In this document: piece by piece, positions 3,206-48,035 of the stretch
Layout: every line of letters starts with the position of its first letter
Position numbering within the stretch: the stretch's first letter is position 1
IMG/VR virus record: IMGVR_UViG_3300045988_174984
Coordinates: 1-48,035 of that record
Length of the DNA stretch: 48,035 bases
Direction: 5' to 3' (one strand)
Source of the DNA: a virus
Notes under the pieces: generated by a model
Told to the model about the DNA's origin: nothing
Database searches by the model: none
Seen by the model: the letters and a program-made list of their open reading frames with translations, nothing else
Program-made: the position numbers and the translations under genes

Positions 3206-3661
3206 ATGTCCGACCTTTCCCCTGCGCAAATGCGCCAAATCACCGCGGCGGTTTACGCCGTCGCCCCGGGCCGTGCCGATCGCGGCCGCGTTTTTGCCGG
3301 CCTTCGTAGGCACTTCGCCGTTGCGTCATATCGCGATATTCCCGCCGAAAAACTCGGCGACGCTTTGCGCGTCATCAGCGCTTACAAACTCGCGAAAGAC
3401 GCGCCGGCCCCACAGTCGAAGTCGAAGCCGCGGCCAAAACCCGAACCGGCCGCGAAGCCTGCGACCACGCGGGAGCAGCGGCGCATGCAACTTGCACTAG
3501 GCACGATTACAGCTTTCGATATCATCTACGATCGTTTAGTTGACCTTGTCTGTGACGACGAAAAAGACTGGCCGCCGCAAAAAGTTACACGTGCATTAGA
3601 TGATATGTCTAAAAACGCGAGCATTTTAGAGGCGTGGTTAACGCTTCAATCCGCACGATAA
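3206..3661 (+). CDS. Hypothetical protein (151 aa) inside the inverted-repeat-flanked cassette
   Basis: ATG at 3206 preceded by AAAGGA. The ORF-track start at 3047 would read through the structured non-coding element and is rejected. Confidence 0.6.
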   Translation: MSDLSPAQMRQITAAVYAVAPGRADRGRVFAGLRRHFAVASYRDIPAEKLGDALRVISAYKLAKDAPAPQSKSKPRPKPEPAAKPATTREQRRMQLALGTITAFDIIYDRLVDLVCDDEKDWPPQKVTRALDDMSKNASILEAWLTLQSAR

Positions 3662-3665
3662 AAAA

Positions 3666-3689
3666 CAAAGTCCATAGATAAATGAGGCC
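3666..3689. repeat. Right arm of the 24-bp perfect inverted repeat (partner 2912..2935)
   Basis: AAAGTCCATAGATAAATGAGGCCG, the exact reverse complement of the left arm. Confidence 0.9.
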
Positions 3690-3715
3690 GTCCGATTAAT
3701 CTCGGGCGGCTTTTT
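3686..3715 (+). terminator. Rho-independent terminator
   Basis: GCCGTCCGA / TCGGGCGGC stem (one G-U pair), a 6-nt loop, then TTTTTT. Confidence 0.75.
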
Positions 3716-3751
3716 TGTTTCTTTTTTCTCTGAAACCGGAGCGTTTTTTCT

Positions 3752-4270
3752 ATGGAAATTCAAATCAAAATCGATGCCACGCCGGCCGCCGTGGCCTGCG
3801 CAGAAAGTTTGGGGCTGCTGGGCGCGGGGCTTAAAGCGCTGTCGAAGCTGCAGGCAAAGCCGCAAAGCTGCACCGCCGCGCCGACCCCGCCCGTGGAGGA
3901 ACCGGCCCCTGAACCTGCCCCATCTGCGGAGGAACCGGCTCCCGAACCTGCCCGACAAGCCGCCGCGGACCATAGGGAGGCGCGGCAAAATTCTGGCGAT
4001 GCGCCCGCCCCGCAGGGAGGCGCGGCAGCCTCTCCGGCTGAACTACATACGCATGCGGATATCCTGACGATCTGCGCGGCCTTGAAGCGCGACTACCCCG
4101 AAGACTTCACGCCGGCCGCAGGCCTGCAATTTACGCGCGATGCCTGTAAAGCCGCAGGCGTTGAATCAATTAAACCGACGGACCCCGAAGCGGTGGAGCG
4201 CCTTTATCAGGCCGTCGCGAAGATGGCCGCCGACTTCCGCGCGTCGCAGGGAGGCGCGGCGAATGGCTAA
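3752..4270 (+). CDS. Hypothetical Pro/Ala-rich protein; carries three copies of the AGGGAGGCGCGGC motif
   Basis: 172-aa ORF. Its stop overlaps the next gene's start (ATGGCTAA). Confidence 0.6.
   Translation: MEIQIKIDATPAAVACAESLGLLGAGLKALSKLQAKPQSCTAAPTPPVEEPAPEPAPSAEEPAPEPARQAAADHREARQNSGDAPAPQGGAAASPAELHTHADILTICAALKRDYPEDFTPAAGLQFTRDACKAAGVESIKPTDPEAVERLYQAVAKMAADFRASQGGAANG
3974..3987 (+). repeat. Motif copy 1: AGGGAGGCGCGGCA
   Basis: Exact 14-mer, read as REARQ. Confidence 0.85.
4014..4027 (+). repeat. Motif copy 2: AGGGAGGCGCGGCA
   Basis: Exact 14-mer in a different codon phase, read as QGGAA. Confidence 0.85.
4248..4261 (+). repeat. Motif copy 3: AGGGAGGCGCGGCG
   Basis: 13/14 match, read as QGGAA. 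Confidence 0.85.
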
Positions 4271-17529: not shown

Positions 17530-17674
17530 ATATTAGACATGCGTGTACGCGGTCGTCAAGGGTAAAGTGATCATATACAAACTTGGTATAAACCCGTAAT
17601 TGCGTGCGGGAACGAAGTGATGCGCGGTAGGCTTGAGAGTACTTTGGATTATCAGAAGCCTGAAAGAGGGATGT

Positions 17675-18124
17675 ATGAAAACTTCGATGGTGGCGGTTGC
17701 CTTGCTTTTGCTTTCCGAAGCTGCGCTGTGCAGCTCTTGGTCGTATATTGGCACTTCTGAGCAGAATGCATCGTTTATCGAATCAACCACCATATCGGAC
17801 GAGGGGCAAGATACCAAAGGGTTTTGGGTCGCAATGGTAACTGCGGATAAAGCGCTGCCCTTTGACACTGCGGTCACCTATATGCAGGCGAAATGCCGCA
17901 AGCGGCAGATTAGGGCTGTGCAGAGCGATTTTTACTTACAAGGCAAGCGTAAGGGCGGCGATGCAGTTTCTGCCCCCTGGCAGCGTGTCATACCTGACAC
18001 CATTGGGGAAAGCTTTCTTTTGTTCGCTTGCCAAAAATACGACCCGATGAACTACACCATCCCAGATACCCCCGTTATGGAGCTGTGGAAAATCGCGCAG
18101 CCTCTAATCGAAAAGCGCAAGTAG
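17675..18124 (+). CDS. Secreted protein (moron); possibly surface-adhesin protein E-like
   Basis: Signal peptide MKTSMVAVALLLLSEAALC, a W..IG...FI....I N-terminal pattern and two conserved Cys. It has its own orientation in an AT-richer island, convergent with the tail genes. Confidence 0.55.
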   Translation: MKTSMVAVALLLLSEAALCSSWSYIGTSEQNASFIESTTISDEGQDTKGFWVAMVTADKALPFDTAVTYMQAKCRKRQIRAVQSDFYLQGKRKGGDAVSAPWQRVIPDTIGESFLLFACQKYDPMNYTIPDTPVMELWKIAQPLIEKRK

Positions 18125-18128
18125 CGCG

Positions 18129-18445
18129 CTATTTCCACCTCCCTATAGCTAAGTAGCCGGAAAGCGTCGTTAAGCCGATGTTATCTATCGCTACGCGCTC
18201 GACGCTAAAGCCGGTGGGAGTGACCGTTGTCGGGTATAGCTCCCGGTCGTAAGATGCAACCGCTCGTGTCGAAACTTTGGACACTAATACTGTAGGGGTA
18301 TCGATGAAAGGCGTTGGAAAGGTTGTTTCCAACGCGATCGTATCAGATCTTATGATCATTATCCCGTTCAGAAATTTGAGGACGTTACCCCCCCCCCGTC
18401 AGCTGTAAGAGCGTTCAGCACATTCAGTATTTTTGCGTTCAACAT
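18129..18445 (-). CDS. Tail-fibre tip paralogue 4, poly-G gated (out of frame with G10; in frame with G11, 105 aa)
   Basis: AGGAGG RBS plus ATG at 18445, then MLNAKILNVLNALTAD, then G10. This frame stops at TGA after 25 codons. The +1 G frame reads ...GGGGNVLKFLNGIMIIRSD...GYLAIGRWK, paralogous to 19936..20307. Confidence 0.7.
18388..18397 (-). repeat. Homopolymer G10 (C10 on the + strand) at codon 17 of tip paralogue 4
   Basis: Counted directly: ccc at 18388..18390 plus ccccccc at 18391..18397. Confidence 0.9.
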
Positions 18446-18495
18446 ATCACCCTCCTTTTAGCGGCCTGCGTTGCACCGCTGTGTTGGTTCTGTTG

Positions 18496-18872
18496 TCATT
18501 TCCATGCTCCTATCGCTATCCAGTACAACGCAGAACTTCCGTCTGTATTGGTGTTCCCGCCTGATGCATACTTAAATCCTGTTGCAGTCAAATAAGCTTC
18601 ATAAGTAAAGGAATAGCCCCACGCGTCAGCAAGGCTTTGAACCATTGACGCAATAATTGGTGATGCGGCAAAAGGGACGGGAAAGGTAAAAGTAACAACC
18701 TTCGCGTTATTGCTGTTCGCCACATTCTTACCCCACTGAATCATTAACCCGTTTGCGAACTTCTGGTAGCCCGCACGCGGGCCGCCTTCAGTAATCGCAC
18801 CTTTGCCGAGATAGTCAAGTACGGCCTTAACCGTGTCCTGATCTACCCCCCCCCCTCTAATAAATTACTCAT
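18496..18872 (-). CDS. Tail-fibre tip paralogue 3, poly-G gated (out of frame with G10; in frame with G11, 125 aa)
   Basis: AAGGAG RBS plus ATG at 18872. MSNLLE, then G10, then TAG in the present phase. With one more G it reads GGGVDQDTVKAVLDYLGKG...FANGLMIQWGKN...VTFTFPVPF...TATGF...YWIAIGAWK. Confidence 0.7.
18846..18855 (-). repeat. Homopolymer G10 (C10 on the + strand) at codon 6-9 of tip paralogue 3
   Basis: Counted directly: 18846..18855. Confidence 0.9.
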
Positions 18873-19116
18873 CGTTTGCACTCCTTAATTCGGGCGGCAA
18901 CTGACTCCGATTCAGCTCGGACTCGTATGCCTCACGGCAGTGGTCGACCTGCCAAAAGAAAAGACCGTTAATGATCCGAGCTAATCTGGGGCGCCCTTTC
19001 AGCTTCCCGCGATACGCCCGGCTCGAAATCGTCTCATCCGCGTAACCACCCGCCAAGGTGTTCACTAGCTGATCGAGGGCTACGAGAACTTGAAAGTAAT
19101 CAGGATGCCGGCTCAT
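18865..19116 (-). CDS. Small conserved-looking protein of unknown function within the tip locus
   Basis: ATG at 19116 gives MSRHPDYFQVLVALDQLVNTLAGGYADETISSRAYR...HCREAYESE. Its stop, TAA 18865..18867, overlaps the ATG of paralogue 3. Confidence 0.55.
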   Translation of the reverse strand: MSRHPDYFQVLVALDQLVNTLAGGYADETISSRAYRGKLKGRPRLARIINGLFFWQVDHCREAYESELNRSQLPPELRSANDE

Positions 19117-19567
19117 AAGGCGTCGTCCATACCTTTGTCTGCGCAGCCCCTGCCAGTTGGAGAGCGCGGGCAAGCTGTTTGATTGTCGGCTCTGCCACCG
19201 TGTTGTCGGCCAGCACCCACACTTGCTTAGTGGTATCGAGGTCGACGCCTAAGACAGTCGCGGCGGCAATCGTGCGGCCCATGCGGGTCTGCGCAGTTTC
19301 GTCACCATCGAAGACCATGCCGTCCACTTCGACTGTGATCTTGCTTACCGTGTCAGCGCGTTCCCGCTTAGCCTTGGCAAGCTCTGCCGCGGCCTGCTCT
19401 TCGGGCGTAGGCGCGGGTACAGCCACGATCTGAAAGCGCCGTTTGCCGTCTGCGTCCTTGTCAATCTCTTTGATGTACCGATCCCCGAAGCCGTTGCACC
19501 ATGCCGCGGCTTCCGGCGGGTAGATGCCGACAAAGATTTGACCGATAGAGAACTGTTCGTCTGTCAT
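19100..19567 (-). CDS. Tail-fibre assembly/chaperone-like protein (DUF4376-like C-terminal region)
   Basis: ATG at 19567 with an AAGGA RBS. The pattern VEVDGMVFDGDETAQTRM...WVLADNTVAEPTIKQL resembles the DUF4376 domain of tail-fibre assembly proteins. Confidence 0.55.
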   Translation of the reverse strand: MTDEQFSIGQIFVGIYPPEAAAWCNGFGDRYIKEIDKDADGKRRFQIVAVPAPTPEEQAAAELAKAKRERADTVSKITVEVDGMVFDGDETAQTRMGRTIAAATVLGVDLDTTKQVWVLADNTVAEPTIKQLARALQLAGAAQTKVWTTPYEPAS

Positions 19568-19577
19568 GTTTGTTTCC

Positions 19578-19936
19578 TTAAAAACCGACTGCAAGCCAAG
19601 AGGCGTATTTCGCAAACGGCGCTGAGTCGATGTTTTTTTCCAGTGCCACGTTAGTTGTTGTTGGTGTTCCTTTTAATGCGATTCGCTCAATACGCCCCGA
19701 GGAGGCGCCCGTTTGACTAAATGCCAACGAGATTGAGGCGGGGTTAGTAAACGGCACAACAAAAGTAATTACAGAGGTCACCGCCCGTAACGGCCCGCCC
19801 TGAATCTTTAACCCGTTTGCCAATTCCATACTCCACGACGAGGTCGTGTTCGTCCTGCGCTTTTCAACAAGAAACGTGTTTAAAACCTTGAGGATTTCCG
19901 GCGATGCGGATACCCCCCCCCCCGTTGATTGGTCAT
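19578..19936 (-). CDS. Tail-fibre tip paralogue 2, poly-G gated (out of frame with G11; in frame with G12 or G9, 119 aa)
   Basis: ATG at 19936 overlaps the stop of paralogue 1 (TAATG). MTNQ, then CG11. The present phase ends after 18 aa. With +1 G it reads GGGVSASPEILKVLNTFL...LANGLKIQGG...ITFVVPFTNP...YASWLAVGF. Confidence 0.7.
19913..19923 (-). repeat. Homopolymer G11 (C11 on the + strand) at codon 5-8 of tip paralogue 2
   Basis: Counted directly: 19913..19923. Confidence 0.9.
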
Positions 19937-20307
19937 TACTTCCACCTCCCGTAAGCGGTAAAAACAAGGGTTTTGTTTAGCGTCGAGTTTCTAGAAATTA
20001 AAAAATTGGTTGTCGTGATTTGTCTCGGCGCGATAACGGTCAGCCAACTAGTTTTGCCGCTCGAGTCGTTAATCGACAAAACAACGTGTGGAGCCGTAGT
20101 AAACCCGACCGAGAAAGTAACAGTGCAGTACTCGGTGTCTGCGCCATTGACGTCTTTTTGCATCAGCTCTTGCAGTCCGCTGTTCCATCTGCGGCAAAAA
20201 TAGTCGCCGCCCGGCGTACCCAAAACTTGCACGACAAAATCAGCGGAACCGCTGTGCAAGGCATTGAGCACCGCTTTAACGGTCCTTTGTGGTGTTAGTT
20301 CTGCCAT
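19936..20307 (-). CDS. Tail-fibre tip paralogue 1 (intact, no homopolymer); small putative receptor-binding tip protein
   Basis: 123 aa. Its ATG overlaps the fibre stop (TAATG). TVKAVLNAL helix, then a C-terminal pattern VTFSVGFTTAPHVVLS...TTTNF...FTAYGRWK resembling the C-terminal tip domain of many phage tail fibres (gp53-like, tentative). Confidence 0.7.
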   Translation of the reverse strand: MAELTPQRTVKAVLNALHSGSADFVVQVLGTPGGDYFCRRWNSGLQELMQKDVNGADTEYCTVTFSVGFTTAPHVVLSINDSSGKTSWLTVIAPRQITTTNFLISRNSTLNKTLVFTAYGRWK

Positions 20308-22265
20308 TACGTAATTCCGTTTTCAGTAGCGAATTGGGTGAATGCCGCCAAAATCTCTGCGGCGGTTGTGTCTGCCGGAATAGCACCATCAGCGATATCA
20401 GTGGGCCCGACCTTGTCTTTGCTGGCCAGTGCGCCGAGCGTAGGCTTGCCGCCCAAATTCGCCCAAGTGAAATTGACAGTGGCCACATAGCCGGATAGGT
20501 CGGGCGCAGGGGCAAGCGTTGTGATTGCCGCCTTCAATGTCGCGGCGCTAATGACGCACCCTGCCGTGGCCGTGCCGGCTTCTGCGGCCGCGTTGGTCAT
20601 CTGTGCGGGTTTATTCAGCAGGACGCCCTTACCCGTGGTCGCATTCCAGTCCGTTTGCACTTGAGCCGCAGGGATAGTCGGCTTGCCGGAGATGCCGGCC
20701 CACGTGAAATCCGTTTTCAGCAGATAGCCGGATAAGTCTTGTGCGGGCGCCCATTTCTGAATCGCGGCCTTGACGCCTGCCGCAGTCACCGTGCCAAACT
20801 TCGCCGCCGTGCCGGTCTCCAGTTCTGCTTTCTGCACTGTGTACTCGGCTGGCGCGACTGCCTTAATTGACGCCTTTAACTGCGCGGCAGAGATCGTGCC
20901 TTGATCGGTGGCCGTGCCTGCGCTCACTGCTGCCGAAGTCAGTTGAATTGGCTTGTTCTTGATGTAGCTTTTAGCAGCTGTATCCGTCTCAGTCCAGTCG
21001 GCCTGAATCTGCCCCGATGAGGCTTGGTTGGCGTACTCCTTCGCCTTATCTTCTGAGGCCTTAGCCGCAGCGGCAGAGGCCGCCGCCGCGTCTTGCGAGG
21101 ACTTCGCAGCGCTTGCGCTTGCCGCCGCAGCAGCGGCTCGGCCGCCGGCTTCTGTAGCCGACGTGGCTGCCGCTGCCGCACTCTGGGACGCGGCGGAGGC
21201 AGAACCGGCCGCGGCTGTCTTTGAGGATGCCGCCGCTGTCTCCGATGCCTTGGCTTTTGCTTCAGAAACCCCTGCGGCTGTAGCTGAAGAAACCGCTACG
21301 TTCTCGGAGGTCTCGGCCGCTTTGGCTGCGGCAGACGCCGCATCAGCGAAGCCGCTTGCTTTGTTGGCGCTGGCCTCCGCGGCAGCAGCTTGCGCCGTCG
21401 CCTTAGCGAGCGAGTCTGAGCCCGCGGCGATAACGTCTTGCTTCCACCTCTGACCGGTAGCGACCACCGTGTCGTTCCACGTGCCGCCGGTCTGGGTAAT
21501 GCGGTCTACCTCACCCTGCCCGTTGAGCTTGATGTCCGCGACAACAGCTGAGCCGGCCGTCGAGATGCGGCTCGCCTGTTCCTGCCCGACTGACTGCACG
21601 TTTGAAATCTGCGTGCCGCCTTCCGTTTGGATCGCGGCAATCTGCTTTCGCCCTTCAGCCGTCACTTGCTCTTTCATGACGTTAATGGCGTTCTTCGAGG
21701 CTTCGGCTTCCACAGCCGAGGAGGCCGCAGCCGCCGCAGAAGCCGCCGCGTCACTGGCACTGGTCGCAGAAGCAGACGCTGAGTTGGCGGCCTCTCCGGC
21801 CTTCGCGACCGCCTCATCGCGCGCATCGAAAAGCGCTTGCGTGAACTGTTCCGGCGTCCTGTCGCCGAGCTCCGGTGCCAGTACCGCCCGATCAAGGCGG
21901 TCCAGAAGCTGTTGGCTAAGCGCGGTGTTCTTGTCCCACGCGGCGTTCAGGTCCTCTGCGTTAAACGCCCCCTGATTCTGCAAAGCGAGAAGCTGGGTGT
22001 ACGGGATGTTCGAAAGGATGACAAGCTTGGCGCCCGCTGCCAGAGGGGCCGAAAGCGTAACGGTGCCGCCGACGGTCTGCGCAGAGGCCGAGGCCAGCGT
22101 GACAGAGTACTGCGTCGTATCGAGCAAAGTACCCGATGCCGCGTCGGCCGCGCGGACGTAGACCTTAACTTGGTCGGCGGCGAAGACGCGGAAAGGGAAC
22201 GTGTATGAATTCACGTCCCCTGTGCCGACATACGTCTGACTGCGCCGAATTTCGGTACTGATCAT
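20307..22265 (-). CDS. Tail fibre protein
   Basis: 652 aa. The N-terminal YTFPFRVF...QYSV pattern is typical of fibre anchoring domains. There is a long Ala-rich coiled region and three EAGTAT..ISAA.LKA.I fibre repeats. Confidence 0.8.
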   Translation of the reverse strand: MISTEIRRSQTYVGTGDVNSYTFPFRVFAADQVKVYVRAADAASGTLLDTTQYSVTLASASAQTVGGTVTLSAPLAAGAKLVILSNIPYTQLLALQNQGAFNAEDLNAAWDKNTALSQQLLDRLDRAVLAPELGDRTPEQFTQALFDARDEAVAKAGEAANSASASATSASDAAASAAAAASSAVEAEASKNAINVMKEQVTAEGRKQIAAIQTEGGTQISNVQSVGQEQASRISTAGSAVVADIKLNGQGEVDRITQTGGTWNDTVVATGQRWKQDVIAAGSDSLAKATAQAAAAEASANKASGFADAASAAAKAAETSENVAVSSATAAGVSEAKAKASETAAASSKTAAAGSASAASQSAAAAATSATEAGGRAAAAAASASAAKSSQDAAAASAAAAKASEDKAKEYANQASSGQIQADWTETDTAAKSYIKNKPIQLTSAAVSAGTATDQGTISAAQLKASIKAVAPAEYTVQKAELETGTAAKFGTVTAAGVKAAIQKWAPAQDLSGYLLKTDFTWAGISGKPTIPAAQVQTDWNATTGKGVLLNKPAQMTNAAAEAGTATAGCVISAATLKAAITTLAPAPDLSGYVATVNFTWANLGGKPTLGALASKDKVGPTDIADGAIPADTTAAEILAAFTQFATENGIT

Positions 22266-22315: not shown

Positions 22316-25300
22316 TTATTTCTTGTAGCCGAGAAGAAGTGCAAGCCAATTGTCAGTGTCGCCCTTATCAAGCGCCTGCCAGCCGGCAATCGACTTCTGC
22401 AGCTGAGCCGCACCCGGCATGCCGAAGTCGCCGGCAAGGTTGATCAGCGCCTTGGAAAACGCCGCGTCAATCTCGCCCTGCTGAACCTGAGACAGGAACT
22501 GCCCTGCATCAGCAATAGCTCGAAGGCCGGACGGACCGCGCCACGAGAACACCGGATCGCCTTTAAAGAAGTTCTCCGTCATGCTCGAGAACTCGCGGGC
22601 CAAGAAGAACTGCCCGAGCATAAAACCGGCAGAAGAGCCCAGAGCGTAGCGAGCCCCATAAGTGAACTTCTCGGCGTCCGTCATCCGGTCCCACTTATCG
22701 TCGTCGTCACCCGGCTGAATGGCCCCGCGAATCACGGACTCGATCATCGGGAGCGCAAGCGAAATCGTGAGTATCTGCGCATATGCTTTCGCACGGTTGC
22801 TCTCACCCAGATAGCTCATGGCAGTCAAACCCAGCGCACGGCCCATGAATGAATAGAACACCATGAAAAGGCGTTGAATCGGAGAACCGTTTTCGATTGC
22901 CGCAGAGTCTGATACAAGGCCAGAACCCTGCGTATCGCGAACGACGCGATCTGCGTATTTCACCGCTTCCGCTTCGCTCAGCCCTTCGGTCTCAATGGCA
23001 CGGCGGAACGCTCCGCTCCACACCACATGGTCAACCGTTCCCTGCACGGCCATCATCGGCGCGTAGGCCACGTCGTAGACCGCGCCCTTAATCTTGGTGT
23101 AGCGGCCGCCTTTCTCGAGCACATTACGGGCGTCGGCGATTTCACGAGTACGGGTAACTTGACGGGCGCGCATGAAGACACTGCGGCGGTTGATCTCCTG
23201 CCAAGTCTCCACTGGGTGCATCATCAGATCCCCGATTCCGGCGAGCACATACTTAGCGCCGACCTTCGGCACCGCCGTGATGAGGCCGGTTACCTGAATC
23301 AGCGCCGTTGTGAAGTTGAAGCCTAAGCCGGCAAGCGAGACGCCTTGACGTACAAAGGCCGACGCGCGATCCGCCGCTCCCGTGTTGGCCGGGCGACCGC
23401 CCGTAGCAATAGCCTTGGCCATGTTGTCAAGCACCTGCACGCCTGCTTCGCCGAAGCGATCGCGGACGGTGTTGAGGATGCCGGGGACAAATACTGTCTT
23501 TGGCGGCTCCTTAAGCTTGATCGTATCCGGGTCAAGACCCGCCTGTTTGGCCTCCTCCCGAGCAGTGTTGTACTCCTCAAGCGCCTTGGCACGCTGACTT
23601 TCGTAGTCTGGGTTGGGAATGCGAATGCCTTCCATAACTCGCTTATAGTCCGCCAGATACTCCCGCCAGCAGACGTCGTGAACCACCTCTTCCGCGCCGT
23701 CAAAGACACCCTGCACGTCCAGACGCATTACAGACCCCATCGGAGCATCGCCGGCGCGAGCCTTGGTGTAGGTCTTGAGCGTCATCATTTCGGTGGCGCC
23801 CTTCAGCGCGGCTTCGTAGTTAACCGCATCGTCGTCTGTATAGGCTCCGCCGAGCTTCTGCATGGAGGCGTTCTTGTCGTACTTGATCGGTACGTAGCCG
23901 CCCGTCATCTGTACTTCCACACCGTCCTTTGACACTACCGTGAACGGCGTAGGCTCGATCCACAACGGTTCTGTTCCCGTTGCACGACGGTTCATTTCCG
24001 CAGCGAGCTTACGGAGCTTTTCCATCACCGCCCAAACCTTATTGACGGTCTGCAGCTGTTCTGCCGTCAGCTCTTCGGCGATGCGCATCTGCTTCTCTCG
24101 ATCGAGGCCGTTGCCTGTTTCAAGACGCTTAGCGTTGCCCTCGTTGCCCATGTTGAGCACAACGGCCATGATGTTGTGCAGGTTCATGCGCCCGACATCT
24201 TCAATCTCTCGGAAGTCGCTGTTAAACGCGCGGCCCGATACCGGCGAAAGCAGATCTGTAAGCTCTGCGCCGAACTCTGCCTTCAGCTGCTGCTCGCGAT
24301 TGGAGCATTCGTCCTGACGCCAAAGCAGCGTCTTCGTAAGAAAGCCCTGCCTGTTTCCGTCAAGCGCCTGCACAAAAGCGACGCCGGGAATATGCGCGTA
24401 GATGAAGCTCGTGAACCCCCGCTTGAACTTCGCCCCAGGGCGGGTTTCCGTAATCGCCGAATTGAAATGCCCGCGCTTTACGGCGTTCGCGTTAGCCGTA
24501 ACGGACGCTGTACCCTCTCGGATCGTGTCGTACAGCTCCATCGTCTTTTCAAGTTCGCGACCCTTCTTTTCGAGGGAGCCGTCTTTGGTGAGGGCTCCGA
24601 AGAAATTGTTCAGTTCTTCGATCTGACGAATCTGCATCGACGGCCAGTCCTGCCCGCCTTTGAGCAGCGCCGCCTGCGTATCTTCCGATAAGTTCTCCCA
24701 CGCAAGCCGAATATTGTCGTGCTTCTCAACAAAGCTCTTCCACGGGGCGGCGGCTTTGTTCTCCTGTGCGTTAAACCCCAGACGTGCGGCGAACTTATGG
24801 ATCTGCTCGGAGTACTCTCCGCCGACCGTCTTTGTCTTCAGCGCTGCTTTCACTCTGCGGTTAAAACGAGTGCCTAATGCACGGGCGCGCTCCACTTCAC
24901 TTGCGAGCATCTCTTGCGCTAGTTGAGCGTGCTTAGCGTCTGCCGCCTCCGAGGTCTGGCCTTTGCCGAAGGCTGTAAGCGCAGCCTTACTGGCACGACG
25001 GGCCGCGGACATAAAGGGGTACGAACGGATTGGCAGCCACCGACCGCTCCGTTCGTGGTATCGGGCATAGGTCATGCGGCCGACTGCTGAACGCGCGAAG
25101 GCTTTCATCGCCGCATTCACTTGCGAAGCCTTACCCGCCATGCCCTTAAGCGCTGCGACTTCTATAGAAAGCACACGCAGTCTGGCGTCGTTATTAAGCG
25201 CAGCCGAGGCCAGTTGTGCGATGGAATCCGGTGAGTACGCCGTGCCGTACTTTTGCAGGAATTCGCTTCTTGCGGCCTCATCCGCAGCCTTTCCTAGGTC

Positions 25301-28300
25301 GACCTTAGACCCGGCAACGATGCGGTCTGCCAAAGCTTCCGGGGACTCTGCGTTGAACGCCATCGCCGCTTCACCCAGCGTTAGGTACTCAACGTTTGCT
25401 TTCCCGCGCTCCATGGCCACGTGGCTGTCAATCAGCGCTTTCTGCGTTTCTTCCGGCAGGTTTTTGATCGTGTCAGCATCGATCTTGCGCCGGATCGTTT
25501 TGCCGTTCTGCTTAGTCGAGCGAATAAAGTACTGGTACGCCTTAATGTGCGGTTCATTCAAAAGAAGCTTTTGTGCAGCACGGCGCATCTTTTGGAAGTC
25601 TGCCTCAAACCCTCGGCGTTTCCGCAGATCAGCGTCTGTACCAAGCTTCATATCCTCGGTCAGGTTCTTGCGAATCTTCCCTTCGGCCTGCTGTCGCGCA
25701 AGCTCTCGAAGGTCAACAAAAGAACGGAAGTCGTCCTCCGACATGCCCGCCTTAACCAACGGGTCGAATACGTTTGCGTCAGCCCAACGATCGCGCGCAT
25801 CCTGCACCGCCTGCTCAGACACAAAAAGCTGATCATAGAGTGAAGCTACTTCCGGAGACAGTTCAACATCAAGCGTTCGGCGAAGGGTGACATAGACCTC
25901 TTTGAGCCAATCGGCAAACTGCGCAAACACTTTTTGGAGCCCTTCGGCCGGAGCCTTGCCTTCCTTGATGTACGCCTCCATACCGCGGGCGAATTTCTCT
26001 TGAAAAGCCCGCTGCTCGTCCGTTGAGGATGCAAGCCATCGATCGACTGCATCCCGAAACGATAGGTCTGTCTTAGCGTCATATGCCCCGCCCCACTGCA
26101 TGAACTTCGATGTGAGCACGAGTAACCGCTCGCTTTGCTGAGAGATGGGCCTCTGCGAATCCGCCTGCTGTGCAAGAAGTACCTTGGCCGTACGCAGCAT
26201 CGTATCAAGCCAGTAGTGCGCAGACTCGTGCAGAAAGGTAGACGCGTTCATACTTGACGCGGCATCTTCATCCTTGAAGAGCCGAATCATTTTTTCCGTC
26301 GGCGTGTAGCTCCCGAGGATCGCTTTCTTGCGCTCTCTCAGGCGCCGATTCTCTGCGCGACGGTCTACCGGCGAAGTGTCTTCCTTCCACGCCCCCACAT
26401 CTGCCTTGTGCTCCTCCCGGGATGTGCGCCGCACGCCATCCTCGGTCGTCTGCAGAAAGCCTTCCGGTTTGGGCGTCGACTCGACGTTAACCGTGAAGCC
26501 GTGCTCTTTAAAGAAGACATCAGGCTCAACGCCGGCCATCTCGGCCATGTTCTCCAGAATAGAGGCCTGTATGGCGACGGAGGACTGCACCTCCTCCTCG
26601 GATCGGCCGGCCGCACGAAGCTCCTCAGCCACGGGGGCCAGTGCCGTGCGGGCTCGCTCCATGCGCTCACGCTTGCGCTCGTACCCTTCGACCGTTGCCG
26701 TGGCCAACTGGTTGACTGCAAGCTCCAGTTCGCCCGTTGCGTCATACGCTCGGGCCTCACCAATAGACATGCCGTCGCGGTCAAAGCGCGCCAAGGCCAT
26801 TACATTTTCAGCCAGGGGCTTATCTTTCAGCCGCAGCTCGAACACCTTAGCAAGCGGAATCTTTACGTCGGCACCAGTGGCCTCGGCTTCCGTGAGCACT
26901 TTAGCAGCGTCAGGGATGAGCTCGCGGAGTTTATCCATGTAGGGTTCTGCTTCTCGGGCGTTGATAATCACGTCCGTAAGCGGCGTACCTTGGAAGGCCG
27001 ACTGCACCGCCCGAGCCGCCACATCCGGCGCACGCTGTGCGAGGCCAGTAGTCTCCATTCGGTTAAACGCTTCTTCGACCACGGCGGCATTATCGAGTGT
27101 GCTCTTTGCCGAACTCTGGTCCTGCGCCACACGGCGGATCTGATTGCGCGCAGAGATCATGTCCACGGGGGCCGTGGCAAGATCCGCGATTGCTTCAAGA
27201 AAGACATCGGCAGTGTTGATCTCCTCACCGATCGCAACCTGCCCGAGCGCTTCGCCGCCGGCGCCAAACGCTGCCTGCACTACGGCCTGCGTGGCATAGT
27301 CCTCCGCGACCGCACCGGTTGTCTTGGCCGTGCGGTTAGCGGCTCTGCCGGCATCGACGGCCTCACCCAAAGTCTTTCCGGAGCGGCGGGCCTGTACAGC
27401 CGCGTTAAGCGAACTAATCGGCCGAATGCTCAGCCGAGCGGCGCCAAGTGACAGCGCATCCATCGCACCGACGGTGAGCGCGCGTTTCGTCGCCGCAATG
27501 CGGGCTTCGCGAACTAGGTCAGAGTTGGCCATAAAGGCTCGAACAGCGTCAGGGTTAGTTGTGTCAACGCCCTGCTTTTCCATCTGACTGATGAAGGTCG
27601 AACCGTACTCGGCTTCAAAAGACGACGCGCCCATAACGGCCCCTGCGGCAGCAGGGCCGGCGACCATACCGGCGATGGGCGCAAGCGCGAATCCGGTCGG
27701 GCTGGTCGCCACCGAAGTAGCGAGCGTGCTGACCATCGTGTCTACTGGGTGCCGTACAGCGATGCCGATCATGTCCCACACGCTGTCCGCGTTGGCGATA
27801 TCCGCTAAAGCCGGATTAGTCGAAAGACGCTGCGCTTCAATCTGCGCCTGCGCCAGCTCTTCCGCCGCGTACTTCGTCGCCTCCTTGCGCCGAGCGGTCT
27901 GCTCTGCAGCAAGCTGAGCCGCCCTTGCCCGGAGCGGACTGTCCGGACGATTCGCCCAGTCTTGGAGCCACTCGTCACCGCCGAATGCATCCGCATCCCC
28001 CTGACGAAGGAGATCCGCCGGATTCACTGCCACGGGGGTCGCGCCGATCTGCAGACGCTTCTGTGCATCGTTGGCCTGCGACTGCAGGCGCCCGCGTCGT
28101 ATTGCCTGACCTAACTGGGAGACAACGGAGAGTGTGTCCCAATCCTGCGGGGAGTTGGCGATCAGCTTGGAAAGCTCTCGATCCGCAAGAAGATCTCGCA
28201 CCACCGGTACCTCAGCGTAGCGCGAGGCGTCCTGCGCGGCCTTGCGCATTTTAAGCGCCTGCCATGAGTCCTGATCCTCGGGCACCGGCACGCCCAACGA

Positions 28301-28429
28301 CTGGGCAGCAGCTCGCCGCTGCGCGAATTCATCCGGGTTGACACCGAGGTTGGCCGCCGCATTGCGCTGAGCGTCCGTGGTCTGATCGACGCTGCGCATC
28401 GACTCGATCATCAAGTCAAGATTCGCCAT
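22316..28429 (-). CDS. Giant internal virion/ejection protein (2037 aa) with an HExxH zincin-like motif
   Basis: Position is equivalent to the T7 gp16-type internal core protein. It has hydrophobic segments and FLHESAHYW (HESAH encoded at 26216..26230). Confidence 0.7.
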   Translation of the reverse strand: MANLDLMIESMRSVDQTTDAQRNAAANLGVNPDEFAQRRAAAQSLGVPVPEDQDSWQALKMRKAAQDASRYAEVPVVRDLLADRELSKLIANSPQDWDTLSVVSQLGQAIRRGRLQSQANDAQKRLQIGATPVAVNPADLLRQGDADAFGGDEWLQDWANRPDSPLRARAAQLAAEQTARRKEATKYAAEELAQAQIEAQRLSTNPALADIANADSVWDMIGIAVRHPVDTMVSTLATSVATSPTGFALAPIAGMVAGPAAAGAVMGASSFEAEYGSTFISQMEKQGVDTTNPDAVRAFMANSDLVREARIAATKRALTVGAMDALSLGAARLSIRPISSLNAAVQARRSGKTLGEAVDAGRAANRTAKTTGAVAEDYATQAVVQAAFGAGGEALGQVAIGEEINTADVFLEAIADLATAPVDMISARNQIRRVAQDQSSAKSTLDNAAVVEEAFNRMETTGLAQRAPDVAARAVQSAFQGTPLTDVIINAREAEPYMDKLRELIPDAAKVLTEAEATGADVKIPLAKVFELRLKDKPLAENVMALARFDRDGMSIGEARAYDATGELELAVNQLATATVEGYERKRERMERARTALAPVAEELRAAGRSEEEVQSSVAIQASILENMAEMAGVEPDVFFKEHGFTVNVESTPKPEGFLQTTEDGVRRTSREEHKADVGAWKEDTSPVDRRAENRRLRERKKAILGSYTPTEKMIRLFKDEDAASSMNASTFLHESAHYWLDTMLRTAKVLLAQQADSQRPISQQSERLLVLTSKFMQWGGAYDAKTDLSFRDAVDRWLASSTDEQRAFQEKFARGMEAYIKEGKAPAEGLQKVFAQFADWLKEVYVTLRRTLDVELSPEVASLYDQLFVSEQAVQDARDRWADANVFDPLVKAGMSEDDFRSFVDLRELARQQAEGKIRKNLTEDMKLGTDADLRKRRGFEADFQKMRRAAQKLLLNEPHIKAYQYFIRSTKQNGKTIRRKIDADTIKNLPEETQKALIDSHVAMERGKANVEYLTLGEAAMAFNAESPEALADRIVAGSKVDLGKAADEAARSEFLQKYGTAYSPDSIAQLASAALNNDARLRVLSIEVAALKGMAGKASQVNAAMKAFARSAVGRMTYARYHERSGRWLPIRSYPFMSAARRASKAALTAFGKGQTSEAADAKHAQLAQEMLASEVERARALGTRFNRRVKAALKTKTVGGEYSEQIHKFAARLGFNAQENKAAAPWKSFVEKHDNIRLAWENLSEDTQAALLKGGQDWPSMQIRQIEELNNFFGALTKDGSLEKKGRELEKTMELYDTIREGTASVTANANAVKRGHFNSAITETRPGAKFKRGFTSFIYAHIPGVAFVQALDGNRQGFLTKTLLWRQDECSNREQQLKAEFGAELTDLLSPVSGRAFNSDFREIEDVGRMNLHNIMAVVLNMGNEGNAKRLETGNGLDREKQMRIAEELTAEQLQTVNKVWAVMEKLRKLAAEMNRRATGTEPLWIEPTPFTVVSKDGVEVQMTGGYVPIKYDKNASMQKLGGAYTDDDAVNYEAALKGATEMMTLKTYTKARAGDAPMGSVMRLDVQGVFDGAEEVVHDVCWREYLADYKRVMEGIRIPNPDYESQRAKALEEYNTAREEAKQAGLDPDTIKLKEPPKTVFVPGILNTVRDRFGEAGVQVLDNMAKAIATGGRPANTGAADRASAFVRQGVSLAGLGFNFTTALIQVTGLITAVPKVGAKYVLAGIGDLMMHPVETWQEINRRSVFMRARQVTRTREIADARNVLEKGGRYTKIKGAVYDVAYAPMMAVQGTVDHVVWSGAFRRAIETEGLSEAEAVKYADRVVRDTQGSGLVSDSAAIENGSPIQRLFMVFYSFMGRALGLTAMSYLGESNRAKAYAQILTISLALPMIESVIRGAIQPGDDDDKWDRMTDAEKFTYGARYALGSSAGFMLGQFFLAREFSSMTENFFKGDPVFSWRGPSGLRAIADAGQFLSQVQQGEIDAAFSKALINLAGDFGMPGAAQLQKSIAGWQALDKGDTDNWLALLLGYKK

Positions 28430-30843
28430 TAGTAATCTTCTCCGTAAGTATCTTCACCTGACCCGGGTTCACCTTCGGGCATCGGCCCGTCATCGATCTC
28501 CACGAAGGGGCGTCCGCCTCTCTGGGCCGCTGGGCTTTCTGGGAGGTAATCCGTAATTGATGGCGACTCTGGGGCCTTCATTAGCCGTGCCGCACCATCT
28601 GCGCCAAGGACGTTTGCCACTTGGATCTTGTCGCCTTCGGACATACACGCCGCAAGGTAAACCATGGTGCGGGCGTCAGGCAGTTTTCCAAAAGCGCCCT
28701 TGTATGCTTCACGGATCCGGGTTCGAAGCGGGAGCGGCAGGTACTCGTCCGTGACAGAAACACTAGGCGCGTTTTTGAGTTTCAAGAAAAGGTTGACGCC
28801 GCCTCTGCCTTTCAGCGCCGCCTCATCCTGAACGCCAAACGCCTTCGCAAGGATCTCCTGCGTTGCGCCCTCTGTGCTGTCCCAGTTAGCGACGTTCGTC
28901 TGCCCGTCCGAGAATATCCCGCCCGGTTTATTCACTTTCGCGCCAAGGATCGCCCGCACATGCTTTTCAAGATCGGCGTGCGAAAGCGGCCCTTTCGTGA
29001 GCTTAAGCCGTCGGATAACGGGGGAGACATAGCCCACGAGATACCCCTTGAGCGCTTTGCCGTCTGCTGACTCGCGATCTTCCTTAATGCCCAGATACTC
29101 CCAGTTTTCGTCGATGATCCGGTTGATGTCGCCATACGGCACTACATCGTCCATCTTCACCCCGTTTTTCAGCGCCGCTCTTTGGTTCTCGAGAATCTGC
29201 AGCTCTTGAGAATCAAGCTGAGAGGCGAGAAGCATGAACTCCCCGTCGGACAGCTTGGCCAACTTTGTAGGGTCGCTGTTCAGCGCCTGAAAAAGAACCG
29301 GATCACCCACCTTGTCAATGTCTCCGCTGGTTATGCGCTCTGCGGCAGAAGCAAGGTGGTTCTTGAAAGACGGCGGCAGGTCGCTGTACCCCTGCATCGT
29401 CATGACATCGTGCACGGTTCCGCCGTTCTGAACAATGCCGAAAGCCTGCTGAACCGTCGCCCCCCAGACAACCTTCTGCTGCTCACGCTCAAGCTTCAGC
29501 TTCTCGAAGCCGAGCTTGGCCGCCGCCATGAGTTCTTCTTGCTGGCCGTGTGGGTTCTGGCGCCTTATCGCCGCATAAACCTGCTCAAATGTCGGATCAA
29601 AGTCGTACGTAGACTCTGTGGCATAGCGGTTCTTAGCTCGAGTGAATTTCGCCTTTTCATCCGGCGTTAAGTAGTTGATAACGTCCCGCGCTGTGCCGCC
29701 GCTGTCGACGGCAAGCTCGATGTTCTGGTCCATCCACTTCTTTGTCTCGGCCGGCGTCATGTCGTTGCGCGCACCAACGATGGAGGCCGCGATTGCGAGA
29801 TCCGGGTCGCCTCCGTACTGCCGCAGCTGGTCGTCCACCGCGTCACGTGCGTAGCTGTCTTTCCTGCGCTGATCGAGCTCGTCCCAGTTCTTCACGCCCA
29901 TGCGCTCGGCATAGTCCCGCCCCCACGAATCAGCGATGCCCCCGTTCGCCATAAGCGTCGTAACCAACCGGCCCGTCGGCGTACTGGCCGCCTTAAGCTC
30001 CGCGACTGCGCTGTCCGCCCGGAGCTTGGCCTGCTTCACCTGCAAAGCAGTCTCCACCTTGTCGCGCTGCGCACGGAGAAACTCTCCGGACGTACCGCCG
30101 GTTGTGGACGCTTTGTATAGATAGAGCTGAGCGTCTTCCGGTCTGTTGTCCGCGATCAGGCGATCGGTGAAGGCGCTGACGCCTTGCTCAACAGCCTGCT
30201 TAACCGCAGAGTCAATAACCCTGCGGCCCGACGGGGTGTCGACATCCATGCCGGTGATACGGCCGTGCTCGATCGCGGCGGCGCGAATGGCCGCCATGTT
30301 CGCTGTAACGCTTCCGCCTTCAGCGATGTTGAAAGCCGCGGCCGAAGCGCGGTTCTTCTGCACGTCAACCGCGTACTTACGCTTTTCGTTCGTGTAGTGC
30401 GTTTCCGCCAGCGCAAACGTTTCCTTGTCTGTCGGCCAAACCCGACGCTCGAACTCCTGCCGCTCCTCGTCGGTAAGCCCGTAAAACTCAGAGATATTGC
30501 CGTGCAGCGACCGCACGTCTTCACCCAGCTGAACCCGATAATCTCGGCCGTCCAGATCTTTGCCGAGCACCTGCGACCCCTGCTTCTGCAGCGGCCCTTT
30601 CTCCGCCGTCATGTACTGGCGGAGGTCGAACTGGTAGTGCGTTACCGCATCCTGAACCTTAAGCTTCACATCCGCTCGCCGAGCCTCCTCACGAAGCCGG
30701 CCCGCCTCTGAAAGCGTCTGCGTGACCTTCAGCGGCTCGCCCGTGTAGTCCACGGCAAAGATCCTCGGCGTCGTATAGCCGGGTCCAGGTTCTGTTGCGG
30801 GAAGCGGAGAAACTTCCGGAGTATCAGCAACTCGTACTGCCAT
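28429..30843 (-). CDS. Internal virion protein (804 aa)
   Basis: Large ORF in the internal-core position with TAATG coupling to the downstream gene. No catalytic motif recognised. Confidence 0.65.
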   Translation of the reverse strand: MAVRVADTPEVSPLPATEPGPGYTTPRIFAVDYTGEPLKVTQTLSEAGRLREEARRADVKLKVQDAVTHYQFDLRQYMTAEKGPLQKQGSQVLGKDLDGRDYRVQLGEDVRSLHGNISEFYGLTDEERQEFERRVWPTDKETFALAETHYTNEKRKYAVDVQKNRASAAAFNIAEGGSVTANMAAIRAAAIEHGRITGMDVDTPSGRRVIDSAVKQAVEQGVSAFTDRLIADNRPEDAQLYLYKASTTGGTSGEFLRAQRDKVETALQVKQAKLRADSAVAELKAASTPTGRLVTTLMANGGIADSWGRDYAERMGVKNWDELDQRRKDSYARDAVDDQLRQYGGDPDLAIAASIVGARNDMTPAETKKWMDQNIELAVDSGGTARDVINYLTPDEKAKFTRAKNRYATESTYDFDPTFEQVYAAIRRQNPHGQQEELMAAAKLGFEKLKLEREQQKVVWGATVQQAFGIVQNGGTVHDVMTMQGYSDLPPSFKNHLASAAERITSGDIDKVGDPVLFQALNSDPTKLAKLSDGEFMLLASQLDSQELQILENQRAALKNGVKMDDVVPYGDINRIIDENWEYLGIKEDRESADGKALKGYLVGYVSPVIRRLKLTKGPLSHADLEKHVRAILGAKVNKPGGIFSDGQTNVANWDSTEGATQEILAKAFGVQDEAALKGRGGVNLFLKLKNAPSVSVTDEYLPLPLRTRIREAYKGAFGKLPDARTMVYLAACMSEGDKIQVANVLGADGAARLMKAPESPSITDYLPESPAAQRGGRPFVEIDDGPMPEGEPGSGEDTYGEDY

Positions 30844-47936: not shown

Positions 47937-48035
47937 ATTTTTTTGAAAAATCAAATAGAGCGTGGAACATGTAATAGTTTGTAACTTCGTTCCCGTCGTT
48001 TAAAAAATTCCAAAATTTTTGCACCCCCTTCCCGG
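47937..48035. repeat. Copy of 1..99 (contig overlap or DTR)
   Basis: Identical over 99 nt to the window start. Confidence 0.9.

Follow-up and report, generated by a model that had tools for sequence, protein, structure and literature searches.

An array of poly-G-gated putative tail-fibre tip genes in a temperate BPP-1-like phage that probably varies its host range by replication slippage

To our knowledge, Campylobacter myoviruses are the only phages in which experiments have demonstrated phase variation of receptor-binding proteins by slippage. The phages concerned, Fletchervirus, are virulent, and their host is an AT-rich pathogen that has numerous poly-G switches in its own genome. According to the accounts of that work given in other articles (Sorensen et al. 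2021, Cell Rep 35:109214; via PMC11868660, PMC10877375 and bioRxiv 10.1101/2025.10.21.683753), Fletchervirus phages have up to four receptor-binding-protein genes, and hypermutable tracts of 7-11 G in such genes make the proteins phase-variable and give rise to subpopulations that differ in receptor use. Here we describe a locus in a phage genome of 48,035 bp (IMG/VR virus record IMGVR_UViG_3300045988_174984, positions 1 to 48,035; this whole stretch is hereafter called the window), in which a tail-fibre gene is followed by four small genes for putative fibre tips, referred to as tips A to D. Three of these, tips B, C and D, carry a run of ten or eleven G close to the 5' end of the gene. We consider it likely that the poly-G tracts are genuine contingency gates on alternative stand-alone lectin-type fibre-tip genes, and, judging from the sequences of the locus and its relatives, the prophage probably varies its host range by replication slippage. 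What is similar to Fletchervirus is the poly-G tract inside a phage gene of the receptor-binding type, if the role that we assign to the tips is correct. However, the Fletchervirus receptor-binding proteins are larger and unrelated, whereas here a temperate BPP-1-like podovirus of a gut commensal has lectin-type tips of only about 105-125 amino acids (aa), arranged in tandem, with a conserved leader and with three to four gates in addition to an ungated tip. Neither the 4.7-kb locus (blastn in distant mode) nor tip C (tblastn against 50,697 phage records) had a match among GenBank phages. Since there is no sequence homology to Campylobacter phages, the array is an analogue and not a member of the Fletchervirus family. 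The functional kind is already known, and what is new relative to Fletchervirus is the type of phage, its lifestyle and host, the architecture of the tips, the number of gates and the modular leader.

The fibre ends of Bordetella phage BPP-1 carry the receptor-binding protein Mtd, a separate trimer of which there are probably two on each fibre (PMC2408619). BPP-1 and the present phage have in common the gene order, a homologous portal, Bbp10 and Bbp9 N-terminus, and a separate (in our case putative) receptor-binding protein encoded downstream of the fibre gene. The mtd-avd-TR-brt genes that follow the fibre gene in BPP-1 and the tip array that follows it in this phage are thus positional equivalents, and the purpose, diversification of tropism, would also be the same. 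The means are different: in BPP-1 a diversity-generating retroelement (DGR) subjects a single C-type-lectin tip to reverse-transcriptase-dependent adenine mutagenesis, whereas here frameshifts would gate a choice among pre-made tips of another fold. Phages Mu (G segment, Gin) and P1 (C segment, Cin) likewise switch stochastically between distal parts of the fibre and thus between host ranges. In these phages, however, site-specific inversion fuses alternative C-termini to a constant N-terminal part, which gives two states, whereas independent ON/OFF gates give 8-16 combinations here. The T2-type gp38 is a separate small adhesin, similar to tips that are presumed to cap the fibre, but it is unrelated in sequence and ungated. 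Bacterial contingency loci based on simple sequence repeats (SSRs), as in Neisseria, Haemophilus and Campylobacter, resemble the genes described here in that a homopolymer lies within the 5' coding sequence, slippage toggles the frame and length is polymorphic among close relatives, but the switches described here reside on a prophage and control putative virion tips. Homopolymeric tracts of Bordetella are also SSR contingency loci (PMC1891110). As to other phages, contingency loci have been proposed for T2 and T4 on the basis of short repeats (at least 6 nt) in genes such as agt and rIIA, isolated poly-G tracts are known in the methylase gene of BPP-1 and in a baseplate gene of PB1-like phages, and short repeats are under-represented in the tail-fibre genes of coliphages (bioRxiv 10.1101/2025.10.21.683753).

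All four tip genes are on the minus strand, so that their G tracts read as C on the plus strand. Tip A (19936..20307, 123 aa) is ungated and intact, and its start is coupled to the stop codon of the fibre gene by a TAATG overlap. Tip B (19578..19936) begins with the ATG at 19934-19936, again with TAATG coupling and with the Shine-Dalgarno (SD) sequence GGGAGG; its G11 tract occupies positions 19913-19923 (C11 on the plus strand). Tip C (18496..18872, ATG at 18872), the one with a recognised Gp53-like_C domain, has a G10 tract at 18846-18855 (C10), and tip D (18129..18445, ATG at 18445, stop at 18129) has its own SD sequence, AAGGAGG, and a G10 tract at 18388-18397 (C10). The tract starts in codon 5 of tip B, codon 6 of tip C and codon 17 of tip D, and the present lengths leave all three genes OFF, with stubs of 18, 9 and 25 aa, respectively. 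One additional G, or two fewer, opens frames of 119/118 (B), 125/124 (C) and 105/104 aa (D) from the ATGs at 19936, 18872 and 18445. Tip B is therefore ON, that is in frame, at G12 or G9, tip C at G11 or G8 and tip D at G11 (105 aa). The longest other runs in the window are 6 nt for G/C and 7 nt for A/T, and first-order Markov simulations of the window give 0.043 expected G/C runs of at least 10 nt against the three observed. All gates consist of pure GGG codons, whereas GGG accounts for only 22% of the glycine codons in the 12 largest genes of the phage and GGC is the preferred one. An earlier, sequence-only reading of the window had described runs of G11, G10 and G10 with no other of 9 nt or more, frames that are each one G short and end in stubs of 18, 9 and 25 aa, an intact first paralogue and a coincidence of three runs beyond chance. 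Translation from the named ATGs and the simulations bear out all of this. Two further parts of its description apply only in part: the tips do follow the fibre gene, but they are not contiguous, as genes for a DUF4376 protein and a phrog_3342 protein stand between tips B and C, and the C-terminal W.A.G.WK ending that it had attributed to the tips is lacking in tip B, which ends in AVGF.

To see how these tracts behave in nature, we tabulated 36 non-redundant related loci (numbered with the prefix L), mostly fetched by exact-protein look-ups, with DNA from IMG/VR, ENA, JGI and Logan assemblies. Several pipelines are represented among them (SPAdes NODE_, MEGAHIT k119_, Logan and JGI). Scanning for related loci with tip C itself gave only two relatives in IMG/VR and none in GTDB representative genomes. 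When tip C was reconstructed in its ON form and used as a query, 57 close homologues were obtained, and the full-length ones differ exactly at the tract-encoded glycines (EGGV, EGGGV, EGGGGV). Some homologues have a tract interrupted by arginine (EGRGV, EGGRGV, ERGV), and others are 82- or 108-aa calls from internal methionines, in other words, the OFF state in other assemblies. For tip B the tracts range from G8 to G12 in 35 uninterrupted cases, with one interrupted tract (GGAGGGGGG) in addition, and the gene is ON, at G9 or G12, in 13 of the 36 loci. Tip C has tracts of G8-G11 plus one interrupted, and is ON (G8 or G11) in 11 of 36. The tract of tip D varies between G7 and G12; there are two alleles of its downstream flank with ON lengths one G apart, so that the gene is ON either at G11 or at G7/G10, and this is the case in 8 of 33 loci. 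Overall, 32 of 105 genes (30%) are ON, a share near the one in three that a freely running frame switch would give, and seven of the eight possible ON/OFF combinations are seen among the 30 complete loci, the missing one being all-ON.

The tracts vary more than their surroundings. Identical flanks of ±150 nt carry tracts of 9, 10 and 11 nt (tip B), 8, 9 and 10 nt (tip C) or 9-12 nt (tip D), and the tract length is unequal in 70-77% of locus pairs as against a per-site divergence of 0.7-1.5% in the flanks of tips B and C. In the pair L122 and L127, which are 99.79% identical over 8.4 kb, the sole gap is in tract B (10 versus 9). Interrupted tracts, such as those that encode EGRGV and the like, or GAGGGGAGGGGGGTA in L118, are in frame, which is what alleles locked in the ON state should show. 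The contingency-locus interpretation and the figure of up to eight tip combinations put forward in the sequence-only reading thus agree with what is found: among near-identical relatives the tract lengths are hypervariable, and the changes toggle intact open reading frames (ORFs). The Campylobacter phage precedent that it had invoked is real (PMC11868660; bioRxiv 10.1101/2025.10.21.683753), and the same array, which it had proposed looking for in related phages and prophages, is present in the related loci tabulated here. It is also worth pointing out that several short metagenomic contigs start or end exactly inside poly-G tracts (the 5' end of L011, the 3' end of L113 and both ends of L115). 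Such contig ends fit length heterogeneity within a sample, but they fit adapter remnants, strain mixtures or read degradation as well and are only suggestive.

In about 97% of copies, whether ON or OFF, the downstream ORF runs without a break to the conserved stop codon; the exceptions are a scaffold gap and a late frameshift. For tip B this ORF is intact in 26 of 27 relatives. Across alleles, the ratio of nonsynonymous to synonymous substitution rates (dN/dS, Nei-Gojobori) is 4.7 for both tip A and tip B, 1.06 for tip C and 0.76 for tip D, compared with 0.20 for the N-terminus of the neighbouring fibre gene, 0.12 for phrog_3342 and 0.04 for DUF4376. The surplus of amino-acid changes in tips A-C (L001-L032 and L118-L128) falls mainly in a small number of multi-allelic codons whose third positions hardly vary. 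An example is codon 94 after the tract in tip B, which reads ATC, CAC, CTC, GAC, ACC or GTC. Multi-allelic codons of this sort are expected of receptor-contact loops engaged in an arms race and are hard to reconcile with unexpressed pseudogenes. In L129-L131, codons 72-73 after the tract of tip B read GGG GGG GTT, which creates a secondary G8 run inside the gene.

Gates are also conserved where the gated domain is not. In L013 and L116 the slot after tip A is occupied by a non-homologous, non-lectin C-terminal domain of 131 aa (...VIAAVYGVNYS), which nonetheless stands behind the same leader (MxNQ..., G9 or G12, helix DAVxKVLEWL). The replaced or extra cassettes are found at 3132-3553 in L013 and at 3460-3886 and 5318-5703 in L116. 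In relatives a further lectin-like cassette (YADGYLVQWG...) also follows a poly-G leader. The number of cassettes varies between relatives, and L116 has four gates. In L113-115, where the homologue of tip C is only 37% identical, both tip B and a further downstream cassette are gated, and no G run of at least 6 nt was found upstream of the tip C homologue. The MxxNQ-polyG-helix leader thus recurs across cassettes. Moreover, the conserved C-terminal codons of a tip (...GGGAGGTGGAAGTAATG) give the next cassette its SD sequence and an overlapping start, which suggests that the array grows by tandem addition. Ordinary mutations have, in turn, disabled the ungated tip A in 4 of about 36 relatives (L021, L119, L118 and L013); the lesions are CAA to TAA, T5 to T6, T6 to T7, and a divergent allele that contains a stop codon. 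All four relatives have at least one gated tip ON, but with so few cases the coincidence is not significant (p ~0.24).

As regards the proteins, tip C matches Pfam PF21882 (Gp53-like_C) with 48.3 bits (E 1.5e-12; cut-off 24.9 bits), and several PHROG tail-fibre families match it at their C-termini. The profile of the tip C family matches PDB 4MTM (E 0.0025), deposited as a putative tail fibre protein, which we take to be the gp53 tail-fibre tip of Acinetobacter phage AP22. These three matches support the tail-fibre tip domain that the sequence-only reading had suspected. Tips A, B and D have sub-threshold Pfam matches to PF21882 or H_lectin (E 4e-4 to 0.08; for tip A, H_lectin at E 4e-4), and in hhalign comparisons with the tip C family tips D and A score 97% (E 5e-11) and 94% (E 1e-7). 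The paralogy claimed earlier for all four tips is therefore upheld for A, C and D by hhalign and Pfam and is weakest for B. The Gp53-like domain was found in 1808 clusters when 1.84 billion representative proteins were searched, almost always at the extreme C-terminus of proteins of about 100-1700 aa. It is the C-terminal domain that AP22 gp53 has in common with tip C, but in these clusters it is mostly fused to a long fibre. The tips are built of a short leader, an amphipathic helix of the xDAVxKVLxxL type and a Gp53-like/H-type-lectin-like beta domain, and would have a receptor-binding role. The N-terminal helix of the tips (...SPEILKVLNTFL, DTVKAVLDYL) resembles the C-terminal helix of the fibre (...AAEILAAFTQFA). 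The fibre has no Pfam domain and no recognisable C-terminal tip domain in Pfam/PHROG profile scans. When its last 170 aa were searched for fusions of fibre and tip, only short proteins with the common fibre repeat were returned, which is uninformative on docking.

Based on these observations, we propose that slipped-strand mispairing during replication would add or remove a G in a tract, in the lysogen through the host replisome and in lytic growth through the family-A polymerase of the phage itself. At one length in three the tip ORF would be read from a strong start codon with translational coupling, and the other two lengths would yield stubs of 9-25 aa. Expressed tips would trimerise and dock on the fibre through their common N-terminal helix, so that virions would carry tip A together with one of the eight subsets of B, C and D, or one of 16 subsets where there are four gates. 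If the tips differ in receptor specificity, such variation would affect host range and might hedge against varying surface glycans of the host. The best support for stand-alone tips docking on a Bbp9-like fibre, and for more than one tip being carried, comes from Mtd as a separate trimer at the fibre ends of BPP-1.

There are other ways to look at the same data. One is that the G-runs are simply mutational hot spots which inactivate redundant, dispensable duplicates of a tip gene, with no adaptive switching involved. Such decay would agree with the fact that most copies are OFF, including all three in this genome, and that about one-third are ON, as for unselected frames; tip A alone could suffice. 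However, the downstream ORFs would then hardly stay intact in about 97% of copies. The dN/dS of tip B, well above 1 and with multi-allelic hot codons, points to selection on an expressed protein, while the neighbours are at 0.04-0.2. The tract is kept on non-homologous cassettes and where the tip C homologue is only 37-67% identical, the gates are pure GGG despite the preference for GGC, and each of the four relatives with a knocked-out tip A retains at least one gated tip in the ON state. We therefore regard decay of redundant paralogues as unlikely.

Equally improbable, in our view, is recoding, in which slippage of RNA polymerase or a ±1 frameshift of the ribosome gives a constant share of full-length protein from any template, and the length of the DNA tract is incidental or only tunes expression. 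Long homopolymers are sites of RNA-polymerase slippage, and a GGG-GGG sequence lets tRNA-Gly re-pair in shifted frames, both of which count in favour of recoding; it would also explain the persistence of all-OFF genomes. On the other hand, the length variation observed at the DNA level suffices by itself to toggle the frames, and the in-frame interrupted alleles suggest that the frame of the DNA does matter. No slippery heptamer or stimulatory structure was seen, although no search was aimed at them. Recoding and DNA slippage are not mutually exclusive, and the former may add leaky expression from OFF templates.

It is very improbable that the frameshifts are an artefact of sequencing or assembly, that is, that the true tracts are fixed in frame, miscalls produce the frameshifts and the genes are four ordinary paralogues. 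In favour of an artefact, each of the three genes lacks the same single G, short-read platforms are prone to errors in poly-G, and some short contigs break inside the tracts. Yet in 36 assemblies from several pipelines the lengths run from 7 to 12, some states being longer and others shorter, and the three tracts on one contig vary independently of one another. Interrupted-tract alleles also exist, one of which (P0006) is listed under both ENA and Logan. With about 30% of genes in frame, no single true length explains the data. An invariant in-frame tract that had been under-called, a case considered in the sequence-only reading itself, is thus excluded by lengths of 8-12.

Least credible of all is that DGR hypermutation or invertase-driven cassette switching is the real diversifier and poly-G secondary: the locus is syntenic with the DGR cassette of BPP-1, and the DGR-like multi-allelic codons of tips A-C raised the idea, but a DGR was rejected because the variable codons include NNG types that adenine mutagenesis would turn into stops, no second copy of any tip region that could act as a template repeat was found in the 48-kb genome (blastn-short with word size 7, and a repeat search), and no reverse transcriptase was found when 13 of the 14 ORFs of at least 280 aa on the coding strands were scanned, each of them matching some other function or nothing, the 14th (408 aa) having integrase (PF00589) homologues in relatives; an invertase or shufflon was rejected because all cassettes have the same orientation, the only inverted repeats are 14-31-nt matches of chance quality (71-93% complementarity) away from the cassette borders, and no invertase was detected.

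Returning to contingency gating of fibre tips, several points weigh against it. All three gates are OFF in the genome analysed here, as they are in 9 of the 30 complete relatives, and the share of about one-third ON means that no selection on the frame is visible in the assembled genomes, which are mostly prophages. The lengths that we compared are consensus lengths from different samples and not from one population, and, since poly-G is hard for short-read platforms, some of them may hold single-base errors. The homology of tip B to the tip C family is the weakest among the tips (hhalign 48%, E 2e-4). The AlphaFold2 model of the tip C family is of low confidence (mean predicted local distance difference test score, pLDDT, of 51) and for this reason was left unused, so that the support comes from sequence profiles. 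Finally, that the tips attach to the fibre and occur in virions is suggested only by analogy and by the position of the domain.

It is tempting to go further and to see the array as an undescribed modular device for bet-hedging. Detachable lectin tips would stand behind a leader consisting of MxxNQ, poly-G and a docking helix, the ...IGRWK* codons of one tip would provide the ribosome-binding site of the next, and new domains, whether lectins or not, could be added and each phase-varied on its own. Mosaic virions with 8-16 tip subsets would result, and the array would be the slippage counterpart of the BPP-1 DGR. We hold this broader interpretation to be plausible but somewhat short of probable. 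A search of the literature on Sutterella prophages and on arrays of gated stand-alone tips found nothing. The positional equivalence with the BPP-1 DGR, the presence in relatives of up to four gates, some of them on non-homologous cassettes, the strong diversifying selection on the tips and the two genes that interrupt the array had all been missed in the sequence-only reading.

The genome that carries the locus has a G+C content of 57.9% and an exact direct repeat of 99 bp at its ends (1-99 and 47937-48035). Because of this terminal overlap, the window represents a complete circular or terminally redundant phage genome and not a fragment. PHROG and Pfam matches identify T7-like tail tubular proteins, an internal virion protein, portal, major capsid protein, large and small terminase, family-A DNA polymerase, primase, holin and lysozyme. 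In two relatives, L118 (7665-7985) and L129 (5953-6273), a 106-aa protein with a match to Pfam Sequestin (PF21825) adjoins the lysozyme and holin genes. Most relatives are embedded in bacterial contigs of 50-240 kb, and relatives encode an integrase; therefore, the phage is temperate. The aminotransferase in the host flank has a best identity of 76%, to Sutterella spp., and on that account the host can be placed only as a gut bacterium that is probably a member of Sutterellaceae. The source samples appear, from the names of the records, to be human-gut metagenomes. Since the exact phrog_3342 and DUF4376 proteins are present in about 400 blocks of public assemblies (413 in the case of phrog_3342), the prophage must be common. 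A single NCBI record, a contig of a metagenome-assembled genome, carries the locus.

For the portal, the nearest cultured relatives are at 38-41% identity and include the Bordetella phages BPP-1, BIP-1 and BMP-1 (39%). A protein of 2037 aa (28429..22316, minus strand) is homologous to Bbp10 of BPP-1 (29% over 1380 aa, E 3e-126), and the gene order matches from the portal through this giant protein to the fibre (Bbp9), so that a BPP-1-like, Rauchvirus-type structural module is present. An 804-aa neighbour (28429-30843, minus strand) has no PHROG match and takes the position of the BPP-1 transglycosylase Bbp11. The tail-fibre shaft itself (652 aa, 20307..22265, minus strand) consists of an N-terminal adaptor of the Bbp9/T7 gp17 type and an alanine-rich shaft; residues 2-150 match PHROG tail and tail-fibre families, and the similarity to Bbp9 amounts to 33% over 166 aa (E 2e-14). 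The 3' part of the late operon, on the minus strand, runs from the 2037-aa gene through the fibre, tips A and B, DUF4376, phrog_3342 and tips C and D to a hairpin. Of the two genes inside the array, also on the minus strand, the one for the DUF4376 protein (155 aa, 19100..19567) matches Pfam PF14301 (E 2.7e-5) and PHROG tail families, and its product may be a fibre or tip assembly factor. The other, for the phrog_3342 protein (83 aa, 18865..19116; PHROG E 7.5e-25), has a stop codon that overlaps the start of tip C. The terminator-like hairpin with its T-run (18114..18130, minus strand), found by a consensus scan only, lies directly after the stop codon of tip D and would mark the end of the late operon. 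The interval from the tip array to the integrase contains, on the strand opposite to the tips, an Adhesin_E-like ORF (17633-18124, plus strand; Pfam PF16747, E 2e-8) with an N-terminus that resembles a signal peptide. It is conserved in relatives and is a candidate lysogenic-conversion surface protein.

If our interpretation is correct, slippage-driven phase variation of phage receptor-binding proteins would be known from two independent cases, of which the present locus would be the more elaborate. It follows that prophage genes annotated as 'frameshifted' may be switches and not pseudogenes, and that predictions of host range from a single assembly could mislead. Phages with switchable tips could be designed on the model of the conserved leader. 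Several independently gated, interchangeable tips would here be combined in a temperate phage found commonly in the human gut. They occupy the same genomic position as the retroelement of BPP-1, so that nature provides two ways of diversifying tropism for comparison.

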